UHGV virus genome: UHGV-0128395
DNA length: 44,690 nucleotides
Reading direction: 5' to 3' (one strand)
Origin: a virus
The position numbers are program-made. Position 1 is the first letter of the stretch. Every line of letters starts with the position of its first letter. Of the stretch, positions 33,901-36,900 are shown in pieces.

Positions 33901-36900
33901 GATGGAAATTATTTCGTTCTGAATAGCTTATTCCGCGCATATCTCCAACGACCCAGCACTCTGCTGTAGCCCCAAAAGATATGAATAAGAACATAGCAGT
34001 AAGAAATTGCTTCACACCAACCTCCTTAGTTTTGCGCAGGATACCATGAAAAAAGTTAACATTGGAAACGTACCAAAGATGCTCGTTCCGCTCTTTGAGA
34101 GCGGTACAATTGTGTTTTGTAGAGACTTTCCAGAATGGCAACGCCTGCATCAAAAACTTGGCGTTGACGTGCATGACTCGGACGCCAACGGAGCGTCTCA
34201 TACAATGAGTAGCGAGAATGGTGTTTTGCATGTGATAGGCGTGTTCAATGGCAAACTATCTACTATTGCCCATGAGTGCGCTCATATGGCATTCGATATC
34301 TGCTCAAGGGTAGGTGTTGATGTTGAACCAGGAAGAGCCAACGAGACTTACTGCTACTTAATGAGCAGGCTTGTTGAGTTCTGCGAGCGACATATCAGAA
34401 AGCCGGAGTGACCCGGCTTGATTATTACTTTTTGCTGTCTGGAGTTCGCTTATCCAATACCCAGCCATGACCTGGCTTTGTTGTTGGTGGAAGCCTTTCG
34501 TTGTCCTTGACGGTTGCAAAATTGTCTTTCTTACCGCCGCGTGGGCCAACTTCTTGGTATATTCCGCCGTTTTTTCCTGTGTTTTCACCTGGTTTTTTCG
34601 CCATGATATACCTCAACATACACCCGTTATTGGGCGATTAAATATTGATCTCATTTTGTAAGTAGTCAATATGGCCCAGGTAAATGCAAAAATTAACCCA
34701 CCTTCAGGTGGGTTTTTTGTACAAATCCTTCAGCGTATCAAACACCATCTTCTTAACAAGCTCTGACTGCTCATCAGCGATGCGTTCCGCATCGTCTCGA
34801 TAGCCTGAAATTTTGGATGGCTTTGATACAGCATCAGTCACTATCTGAACTAATTCTGAATTAAGAGAGCGGCCATTGGATTTGGCTCGCTGTTTTAGTT
34901 TTTCCTTTAATTCGTAAGGTAGCCGCAGATTAAATTGCGGGTCATCTCTTCCCATTCTTGATGCCTCGCTTTTGTGAGTGGATCGGCATCTTATTATCTG
35001 CTGGTTGCATCCTCAATAAGACCACAGTGGTCTCTTTGTTTGATTAATAATGCATCACTGTGGCAATGCTGCGGCGATTCCTTGTATCTGGAGCAAATTA
35101 AATGACAGACATTACAGCCAATGTTGTAGTGAGTATGCCTTCGCAACTCTTCACTATGGCGCGTTCTTTTAAAGCCGTAGCCAATGGCAAAATTTATATC
35201 GGTAAAATTGACACTGACCCGGTAAATCCTGAAAACCAGATTCAGGTTTATGTAGAGAACGAAGACGGTTCTCACATTCCTGTTTCGCAACCAATAATGA
35301 TTAACGCTGCTGGATATCCGGTATATAACGGACAGATTGCCAAATTCGTAACCGTGCAAGGCCATTCTATGGCTGTTTATGATGCGTATGGTACACAGCA
35401 GTTCTATTTTCCTAATGTGCTGAAGTATGATCCTGATCAGTTACGGCAGCAATTAGAAGACCCAGATGGAGCGAATAAATACCCAAAACTTCAGATAGCA
35501 AGATGGAGAGACAGTTATGATGTAAGAGGTTGGGGGGCTATTGGTGATGGTGTTCATGATGATACATCAGCTCTATCAGAATTACTTTCTGTTGCAACAG
35601 GTGGTGAAAAGATAGATGGGCGAGGGCTTACTTTTAAAGTATCAACTCTTCCAGATGTCAGTCGATTTAAAAATGCTCGTTTTTTATTTGAGAGAATACC
35701 GGGTCAGCCTCTTTTTTATGCTTCTGAAGATTTTATCCAGGGAGAGTTATTTAAAATTACAGATACACCGTGGTACAACGCCTGGACGCAGGATAAAACG
35801 TTTGTATATGACAATGTCATCTATGCGCCTTTTATGGCTGGAGACCGCCATGGTGTAAATAACCTCCATGTTGCATGGGTTCGCTCAGGAGATGACGGGA
35901 AGACCTGGACAACGCCGGAATGGCTTACAGATTTACATGAAAACTATCCCACAGTTAACTATCACTGCATGAGTATGGGGGTTGTCAGAAATCGCCTTTT
36001 TGCTGTAATTGAGACGCGGACCGTGAGCGGAAATAAACTGCAGGTTGCAGAGTTGTGGGATCGCCCAATGAGTCGCAGCCTTCGCGTTTATGGTGGTATA
36101 ACGAAAGCAGCAAATCAGCAAGTCGCTTATATTCGCATTACTGATCACGGATTATTTGCTGGTGATTTTGTCAACTTCTCAAACTCTGGTGTTACAGGTG
36201 TTACCGGGAATATGACGGTGACTACTGTTATTGATAAAAATACTTTTACAGTTACGACGCAAAATACCCAGGATGTGGATCAGAATAACGAGGGTAGATA
36301 CTGGAGTTTTGGTACATCATTTCACTCGTCACCATGGAGAAAAACCAGTCTTGGAACTATTCCTTCTTTTGTTGACGGAAGCACTCCTGTTACTGAGATT
36401 CACAGTTTTGCGACGATTAGCGATAACAGTTTTGCTGTTGGCTACCATAATGGTGATATTGATCCACGCGAGCTTGGGATACTCTATTTCTCTGATGCTT
36501 TCGGTTCTCCTGGTAGCTTTGTTCGCAGACGCATACCTGTAGAATATGAGGCGAATGCATCTGAGCCATGTGTAAAATATTATGATGGCATTCTGTATCT
36601 GACGACCAGGGGGACATTAAGTACTCAACCCGGTAGTTCATTGCACAGAAGCTCTGATTTAGGTACATCATGGAATTCTCTTCGCTTCCCAAATAATGTT
36701 CATCACTCAAACCTTCCTTTTGCCAAAGTTGGCGATGAGCTGATTATTTTTGGCAGTGAGCGCGCATTTGGTGAGTGGGAAGGAGGAGAACCTGATAACC
36801 GTTATGCAGGAAATTATCCAAGAACATTTATGACCAGAGTTAACGTCAATGAGTGGAGTCTGGATAATGTAGAGTGGGTTAATGTTACTGATCAGATTTA

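Follow-up and report, generated by a model that had tools for sequence, protein, structure and literature searches.

The 44,690-nucleotide virus genome UHGV-0128395 (44.7 kb; this whole stretch is called the window below) carries a homologue of the phage P22 repressor gene mnt, which faces the tailspike gene across a short gap containing a perfect palindrome. We propose, at a probability of roughly 0.6, that mnt, its promoter Pmnt and this palindrome, as operator, form a self-contained cassette of variant specificity that is kept by selection, and that the tailspike gene is read from the late operon. A first-pass annotation of this DNA had described an mnt gene lacking arc and ant and followed by the tailspike gene; open reading frame (ORF) prediction, Pfam and tblastn searches upheld this description, and its coordinates were right. 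It had also suggested that Mnt may repress a promoter in the gap that feeds the tailspike gene and possibly neuO, a proposal that fared less well (see the promoter analysis below).

The palindrome is almost certainly a Mnt operator

The gap between mnt and the tailspike gene is 146 bp long (positions 34956-35101) and contains, at 35019..35033, the perfect 7+1+7 dyad AGACCAC-A-GTGGTCT (AGACCACAGTGGTCT), in agreement with the 15-bp palindrome of the first-pass annotation. This sequence has no other zero-mismatch match in the window. By our own estimate, ~0.01 perfect dyads of such size are expected by chance in a gap of this length; given the position of the dyad and its conservation across relatives, the question of a chance origin appears irrelevant.

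As the earlier annotation had advised, the dyad was compared with P22 Omnt. It lies at the homologous position, and the core CAC-N-GTG is common to both. The operator region reads ctcaatAGGTCCACgGTGGACCT in P22 and ctcaataAGACCACaGTGGTCT in the window, at an equal distance from the mnt start codon; the sequence of the P22 mnt-arc interval is ...TATATTCTCAAT-AGGTCCAC-G-GTGGACCT and that of its counterpart in the window ...TGCATCCTCAATA-AGACCAC-A-GTGGTCT. Aligned on their centre, the two operators show a pair of symmetric changes in each half-site, which is GTGGTCT in the window and GTGGACC in P22. The latter was found by experiment to be the optimal half-site of P22 Mnt (Fields et al., 1997, as cited in PMC2726951). 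The window has the single dyad with a CAC-N-GTG core beside its own -35 that characterizes the Mnt family, here 2 nt from TTGAGG, but not the P22 operator specificity (GTGGACC, with His6, Asn8 and Arg10): its half-site is GTGGTCT and residue 6 of its Mnt is Gln.

When seven representative gaps were aligned, the longest invariant stretch was CAATAAGACCAC-N-GTGGTC, in which the central column alone varies. Sequences to the right of the operator were variable, with indels, and could not be aligned. No second dyad was found in the prophage with three mismatches allowed, and half-sites were not enriched. Operator identity, which we regard as almost certain from these comparisons, follows from the positional homology with P22 Omnt, from the covariation of operator and recognition strand at the level of classes (next section) and from the phylogenetic footprint.

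Two other candidates were rejected. A terminator scan flagged the palindrome as a possible intrinsic terminator, with a 6-bp stem and a T-rich tail; the predicted RNA fold of a 41-nt segment that includes it reaches only -8.7 kcal/mol, and a role as terminator was rejected because ST160 and phage L lack the T-rich tail. A partial second operator core (CACTGTGG, 35056-35063) was treated as a chance match, since neither ST160 nor phage L conserves it. In one divergent orphan locus (L128, ~7730-7775) an isolated extra half-site, TAAGACCAC, was observed 13 nt downstream of the full operator, on the tailspike side.

Recognition strand, operator and locus layout covary

The mnt gene (34704..34955, minus strand) encodes a predicted ribbon-helix-helix repressor of 83 amino acids (aa), with a C-terminal tetramerisation domain. 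The two domains of the family, the N-terminal ribbon-helix-helix and the C-terminal coiled-coil tetramerisation domain, are both present: Pfam detects Arc (PF03869, 78.8 bits, cut-off 20.4) and Repressor_Mnt (PF11423, 66 bits, cut-off 20.9), and the PDB matches are 1mnt, the N-terminal domain of P22 Mnt (E 3e-34), and 1qey, the tetramerisation domain, over residues 53-83. The protein is 76% identical to P22 Mnt. Its description as a near-canonical Mnt in the first-pass annotation holds for family membership, but not for the DNA-recognition strand, which reads PQFNLR in the window and PHFNFR in P22; in and near this strand the window Mnt carries H6Q, F9L, M11L and M13Y. The PQFNLR strand is identical to that of Arc. 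Residue 6 and the N-terminal residues reportedly set operator specificity, in work attributed to Youderian in 1983 and to Knight and Sauer in 1989.

The first, protein-based sample comprised 80 Mnt loci from IMG/VR together with the window, ST160, 720R6, P22 and three loci from genome collections, 87 loci altogether. The P22-class strand MARDDPHFNFRMP was found in 51/87 loci; those in which mnt is followed by arc carry GGTCCAC-G-GTGGACC, and five P22-class loci have a CUS-3-like layout without this palindrome. The variant-class strand MGRDDPQFNLRLPY was found in 35/87 loci, every one with a site of the AGACCAC-N-GTGGTCT type. The central base of the variant operators takes all four values while the arms are fixed, a few loci having one or two arm mismatches. 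All variant-class loci (35/35) face a tailspike gene with a head-binding domain (gene 9), and arc or ant was present in none of them (0/35). P22-class Mnt was never found orphaned. The last of the 87 loci, L089, belongs to neither class. From this covariation, the PQFNLR strand and the GTGGTCT half-site are most likely cognate and would form a natural altered-specificity pair.

A scan of IMG/VR with the exact operator pattern gave many chance matches in unrelated contigs; 80 loci were examined. Three of them (L096, L149 and L160) are complete mnt-Pant-operator-arc-ant regions with a PQFNLR-type Mnt and the same operator; in these, a consensus -35 TTGACA and a 17-nt spacer are followed by arc and ant. 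Four others (L122, L128, L169 and L173) are divergent orphans that face a tailspike gene, with Mnt proteins 52-63% identical. One further divergent lineage (L219/L220), whose Mnt has MGREDPQFNLRIPAEL, carries upstream of mnt a hybrid site, AAGACCAC-C-GTGATAC, with a left arm of the variant type; its right arm resembles the ATATCAC-G-GTGATAT palindrome of the Phlomobacter locus L089.

Among isolate phages, the best matches to the window over mnt, the gap and the beginning of gene 9 were Escherichia vB_EcoP-720R6 and Gally (97-99%), followed by Salmonella ST160, SE1 and their relatives (85%); in all of them mnt directly faces gene 9. An 801-base query (34600-35400, from the start region of orf59a, the gene next to mnt, to the first 300 bases of gene 9) was covered over at least 80% of its length in 105 of 5,426 complete E. 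coli genomes.

Orphan mnt is a mosaic gene that appears to be maintained by selection

Compared with P22, mnt contains a mosaic junction near codon 60 (~34775): codons 61-84 show 97-100% nucleotide identity and codons 1-60 just 56-72%, so that the DNA-binding half of mnt and the gap differ in origin from the tetramerisation half. The region from 34300 to ~34800 is 97% identical to P22. The tetramerisation codons and all sequence to their left (orf59a and terminator) are 97-100% identical to P22, and the ST160/L type is found in the DNA-binding codons and in the gap. In phage L, this same N-terminal half of mnt is joined to an unrelated C-terminal half; ST64T likewise has the same strand and operator and a different C-terminal domain. 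These combinations indicate that operator and recognition domain travel together, and that the tetramerisation domain is exchangeable.

Between window-type and ST160-type orphan mnt genes, synonymous divergence (dS) was ~0.5 and non-synonymous divergence (dN) ~0.04-0.05, with a dN/dS ratio of 0.07-0.09. The gene was intact in 35/35 variant-class loci. The 80 nt beside the mnt start are 85% identical in the two types, which makes this flank more conserved than synonymous sites (~63% identical, our own estimate from substitution counts). Judged by these values, orphan mnt is kept by purifying selection and is not decaying.

A predicted Pmnt is conserved and Pant is degenerate

Promoters were sought by a consensus scan and by scoring of all positions, expressed as matches out of 12. 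As a control, the scan detected both P22 promoters, Pant (TTGACA-17-TATATT, 11/12) and Pmnt (TTGAGA-17-TATCAT, 10/12); the same scan reported neither of them in the window or in ST160. When all positions were scored, the position homologous to Pmnt was the best leftward site in most orphans examined and ranked among the highest in the others. Its sequence is TTGAGG-17-TAAGAT in the window (8/12) and TTGTGG-17-TATGAT in ST160 and phage L; orphan sites have TTG(A/T)GG or TTGTTT, a spacer of 17-18 nt and TA(A/T)GAT, and score 7-8/12, with the key TTG and TA...T kept. The predicted -35 of the window (TTGAGG, 35011..35016, minus strand) lies 2 nt from the operator, and the CAA of this hexamer is invariant in the alignment. 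The predicted -10 (TAAGAT, 34988..34993, minus strand; TATGAT in ST160 and phage L) is the positional homologue of P22 TATCAT. The operator is centred near -45 of Pmnt, the same geometry as computed for P22. A putative Shine-Dalgarno sequence of mnt, GAGG (34964..34967, minus strand), was read from the sequence inside the block GATGCCTC, which is largely invariant in the alignment.

A Dam site, GGATCG (34981-34986), was observed at the predicted Pmnt start and is conserved in most aligned orphan lineages; a second GATC lies 12 nt from it in ST160 and phage L. No evidence was found for a role of Dam or GATC at the predicted Pmnt start, and the selectively unmethylated sites of phage L lie at gtrABC.

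In the rightward direction, Pant is represented in the window by the degenerate remnant TCGGCA-17-TGCATC (34983..35011, plus strand), which scores 6/12, compared with 11/12 for its P22 counterpart. The homologous site scored 7/12 to 9/12 in other orphans, the last base of the -10 was C in every orphan examined, and no conserved alternative rightward promoter was found in the gap among the orphans compared. On this evidence a gap promoter feeding the tailspike gene is not supported, although weak activity would be possible. The same applies to the suggestion that such a promoter also feeds neuO: a promoter-like site with an extended TG (38156-38184, 10/12) precedes this gene, and the neuO promoter region is regulated by DsdC (PMC9659370).

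HK620, which has no mnt gene, keeps the same gene 9 leader. In P22, the tailspike gene is reached by antiterminated transcription of the late operon (PMC2629481). The two bidirectional terminators present in the window between the late genes and gene 9 (34400-34419 and 34695-34714) fit transcription of the tailspike gene in the same manner. Kapi1 has a complete mnt-arc-ant locus, and mnt was below the detection threshold in its transcriptome (PMC12922286), which is uninformative for orphans.

Gene content and setting of the locus

The genes of the window in the region between gene 16 and gene 9 are hkcB-like, hkcC-like, orf59a and mnt. The interval 34425-35101 consists of a gene of 59 aa and one of 83 aa, both on the minus strand, and then the 146-bp gap before a gene of 981 aa on the plus strand. 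This last ORF (35102..38047) is the tailspike gene, in which Pfam finds a P22-type head-binding domain followed by an endosialidase and a chaperone domain. Downstream of it are the neuO heptanucleotide repeats, an integrase gene and a tRNA-Arg gene; together with the endosialidase tailspike, they identify the window, as far as gene content can tell, as a CUS-3-like E. coli K1 prophage.

The 59-aa gene downstream of mnt (34425..34604, minus strand) had been called YjzC-like in the first-pass annotation. A gene is indeed present there, and it is a homologue of P22 orf59a, of unassigned function (PHROG 3202 match, E 7e-31); its resemblance to YjzC is weak, the Pfam match (19.4 bits) being below the cut-off of 25. 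The orf59a side (34425-34703) shares 97% of its nucleotides with P22. A promoter-like site upstream of orf59a (TTGACT-17-AATATT, 34641..34669, minus strand, 9/12 in the consensus scan) is also present in P22 and ST160, so that orf59a is probably independent of Pmnt.

Two bidirectional terminator-like hairpins flank orf59a. The first (34400..34419), found in the terminator scan between the hkcC-like and orf59a-like genes, corresponds to tORF59A of HK620 and P22; it is annotated in HK620 and was also detected in P22 and ST160. The second (34695..34714) has an 8-bp stem with T runs on both strands and overlaps the mnt stop codon; it is conserved in ST160 and annotated as a terminator in phage L. 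This hairpin would end leftward mnt transcripts and would halt non-antiterminated rightward transcripts ahead of the tailspike gene.

Right of the operator is a variable junction (35034..35052), AT-rich in the window, at the place occupied by arc and ant in a complete immunity I (immI) region. ST160 and phage L either lack it or have another sequence there, and alignments show indels and no conservation. It is followed by the conserved gene 9 leader and ribosome-binding region (35053..35101, plus strand). This leader (~50 bp) is common to P22, HK620 and CUS-3, where it is annotated as 'boundary sequence bsq1', and in the search for relatives, matches H104-H114 cover query positions 352-398 only, which correspond to the leader.

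The window has none of the defining features of a complete immI, namely ant, arc, sar and a strong Pant. A tblastn search of the whole window with the Ant proteins of P22, CUS-3 and L149 and with P22 Arc found no arc or ant homologue, the sole Arc-like match being mnt itself, and an Rfam search of the region found no sar RNA, only sub-threshold terminator-like matches.

Several observations were made on neighbouring sequences and on relatives. The heptanucleotide array at the 5' end of neuO (38204-38296) contains 13 copies in the window, and CUS-3 proper is annotated with 19; the neuO frame that opens at ATG 38201 stops at 38308 and thus appears to be phase-OFF in the window. In CUS-3 (CP000711; L006; 6505-7000, minus strand), an unannotated small ORF with a ribbon-helix-helix-like sequence (MKVKTLRMPEKLEKILEEKAKEECRSFSAEVIKRVL...) lies within 'boundary sequence bsq2', which separates ant from the first mnt, and is followed by a second small Cys-rich ORF; the published remark that CUS-3 lacks arc may therefore need revisiting. 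In three IMG/VR loci (L027, L028 and L029), gene 9 is cut downstream of the operator after ~5 codons (MTDII...), and ~170 bp of AT-rich DNA precede a different tailspike-like gene, whose product is extended at the N-terminus (…MTNMPDITPNVV), as if the tailspike gene had been replaced just past the conserved leader. In P22 (L003), a direct repeat of the start of the leader, aaaattcaccgtagccaYgct (5420-5447 and 5527-5548), flanks ~85 bp between t_ant and gene 9, an arrangement consistent with a role of the gene 9 leader as a recombination boundary.

Discussion

The layout of this locus is already described; the window adds to it the case of a K1 prophage. The arrangement in which mnt is divergent from and adjoins gene 9, between gene 16 and gene 9, has been published as the 'mnt-only ant moron'. 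It was described for ST64T, ST104 and Para1 (Villafane et al., PMC2629481) and for phage L (Zaworski et al., 10.1101/2020.10.05.325894), where the choice between a new function and a remnant was left open. The window has this layout, together with the PQFNLR-class Mnt, the AAGACCAC-N-GTGGTCT operator and the conserved Pmnt region of such morons. Like L, ST64T, ST104, SE1 and ST160, it has mnt divergently facing gene 9 without arc or ant, and it shares with the L/ST64T/SE1/ST160-type moron the recognition strand MGRDDPQFNLRLPYELKEK, the Pmnt geometry and the bidirectional terminator. The operator core of L and ST160, TAAGACCAC-C-GTGGTCTTA, is that of the window apart from the central base, which is A in the window. 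Unlike the Salmonella mnt-only phages, the window has an E. coli K1 host, an endosialidase tailspike and neuO downstream, and its gap is of 146 bp instead of 135 bp, with 11 extra AT-rich bases right of the operator. The C-terminal third of mnt and orf59a are of P22 type in the window (97-100% nucleotide identity), whereas the C-terminal domain of phage L is different.

With P22 immI the window shares a Mnt homologous in both domains, the place of the operator relative to mnt and to the Pmnt -35, the CAC-N-GTG core, and the flanking orf59a and terminators. It differs from P22 immI by the lack of arc, ant, sar and a functional-looking Pant, and by the combination of GTGGTCT with Gln6, Leu9 and Leu11, compared with GTGGACC and His6, Phe9 and Met11 in P22 (PMC2726951 for the P22 optimum). 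CUS-3 (CP000711) resembles the window in its endosialidase tailspike, neuO, integrase, argW context and gene 9 leader; unlike the window, it has two tandem mnt paralogues, an unannotated small ribbon-helix-helix gene and ant, and its Mnt is P22-like, of the His6 class. The moron of the window differs from that of CUS-3 and is shorter. Mnt His6 mutants and swaps of N-terminal residues between Arc and Mnt resemble the window variant in that residue 6 and neighbouring residues of the strand are changed. The protein-operator pair of the window, however, would be natural and co-evolved, and its operator is not that of Arc. The points that we consider new are modest: purifying selection on an orphan mnt, and a natural altered-specificity pairing of protein and operator.

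We propose that the gene 16-gene 9 region of the window is an mnt-only version of the P22 immunity I region, one that would have lost arc, ant, sar and the central part of Pant, together with all sequence from the operator up to the conserved gene 9 leader. The remaining cassette would comprise mnt with its own promoter (TTGAGG-17-TAAGAT), an operator that abuts the -35 (centre ~-45) and a bidirectional terminator at its flank, maintained by purifying selection and apparently inherited as a unit. We infer that, in the lysogen, the operator is bound by a Mnt tetramer that acts on its own divergent promoter region: it would either regulate its own synthesis or keep the remainder of the rightward promoter silent. 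As in all P22-like phages, the tailspike gene would be expressed from the late promoter through antitermination, a gap promoter playing no part.

Some observations weigh against this proposal. Pmnt scores only 8/12 in the window. Gln6 is also found in L089 with a different palindrome, so that residue 6 alone does not fix specificity, and one divergent lineage (L219/L220) has kept the left half-site alone. The four divergent orphans were first found by an exact search for the operator, which is an ascertainment bias, and were re-found by the protein-based search. Finally, Vershon and colleagues are said to have reported in 1987 that P22 Mnt, bound at the corresponding site, leaves Pmnt unrepressed and stimulates it only indirectly, by shutting off Pant. 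If so, an operator in cis would bring no evident benefit once Pant is dead, yet the operator is conserved.

Five other readings were weighed. A tentative one is that the tailspike gene belongs, with the PQFNLR Mnt and the GTGGTCT operator, to an old unit that is positively maintained, in which Mnt would have an undescribed job independent of any antirepressor of its own phage. This idea stems from the layout common to 35/35 sampled loci and to lineages with 52-63% identical Mnt proteins, and from the lack of any orphaned P22-class Mnt. Candidate jobs, if it is true, would be control of transcription entering the tailspike gene, or cross-immunity to phages with an operator-bearing ant, and the unit would be a natural altered-specificity ribbon-helix-helix/operator pair for the classic problem of Mnt recognition.

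P22 Mnt represses ant on superinfecting genomes. Orphan Mnt might similarly act in trans, repressing the ant gene of incoming or co-resident phages that carry the variant operator, with the local operator serving only homeostatic autoregulation; this would shield the prophage from antirepressor-driven induction. Purifying selection on a Mnt without an ant of its own would be accounted for, and complete immI regions with the exact operator and a PQFNLR Mnt do exist (L096, L149 and L160). However, we consider this reading unlikely, as such regions made up just 3/80 loci examined in the operator scan, had no close relative in the 5,426 complete E. coli genomes or among isolate phages, the nearest being an Erwinia phage, and ant was present in 0/35 enterobacterial variant-class loci of the first sample.

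That Mnt represses a surviving rightward Pant that drives the tailspike gene and perhaps neuO, so that endosialidase is off in the lysogen, is in our view improbable. The window site scores 6/12, and in all orphans examined the -10 ends in C; no rightward site in the gap was reported by the scan, which does pick up P22 Pant, and the sequence right of the operator is variable, with indels and no conserved promoter. Besides, neuO has its own promoter-like site and DsdC-dependent regulation (PMC9659370), and the gene 9 leader is the same in phages without an mnt gene. This has to be set against the position of the operator, where P22 Omnt overlaps the Pant start site, against a better remnant (TCGGCA-18-TATAAC, 9/12) in the divergent orphans L173 and L169, and against the need of a conserved operator for a function in cis; an influence of Mnt and Arc on the level of P22 tailspike has also been a matter of speculation in the literature (PMC2629481).

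Mnt bound 69 bp upstream of gene 9 could instead be a roadblock that partly stops late-operon polymerases and tunes tailspike output, which could then differ between induction and fresh infection. Such an effect was raised as a possibility for P22 by Villafane et al. (PMC2629481), and in orphans the operator is always located between the body of the late operon and gene 9, every variant-class orphan being linked to gene 9. In the window, however, antiterminated late transcription already crosses two bidirectional terminators, neither the distance nor the sequence between operator and gene 9 is conserved, and many P22-like phages are entirely devoid of mnt. Antiterminated late transcription is, moreover, expected to resist roadblocks, and this model appears very improbable to us. 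Least credible is that mnt and the palindrome are functionless leftovers of a recent arc-ant deletion, a possibility named in the phage L paper (10.1101/2020.10.05.325894) and for which HK620 provides the example of a region able to decay to remnants: it is contradicted by the selection analysis (dN/dS 0.07-0.09 at dS ~0.5, 35/35 genes intact), and the orphan layout persists at 52-63% Mnt identity with the operator as the most conserved intergenic block.

The proposed cassette leaves the understanding of tailspike or neuO expression unchanged. As for the question raised with phage L, whether orphan mnt is a remnant or has a function, the selection that appears to act on the gene and its operator answers it in favour of function. 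The Gln6/Leu9 strand with the GTGGTCT half-site would represent a natural specificity variant of a textbook repressor, and this variant specificity would explain why phage L behaves genetically as if it had no P22-type immI.

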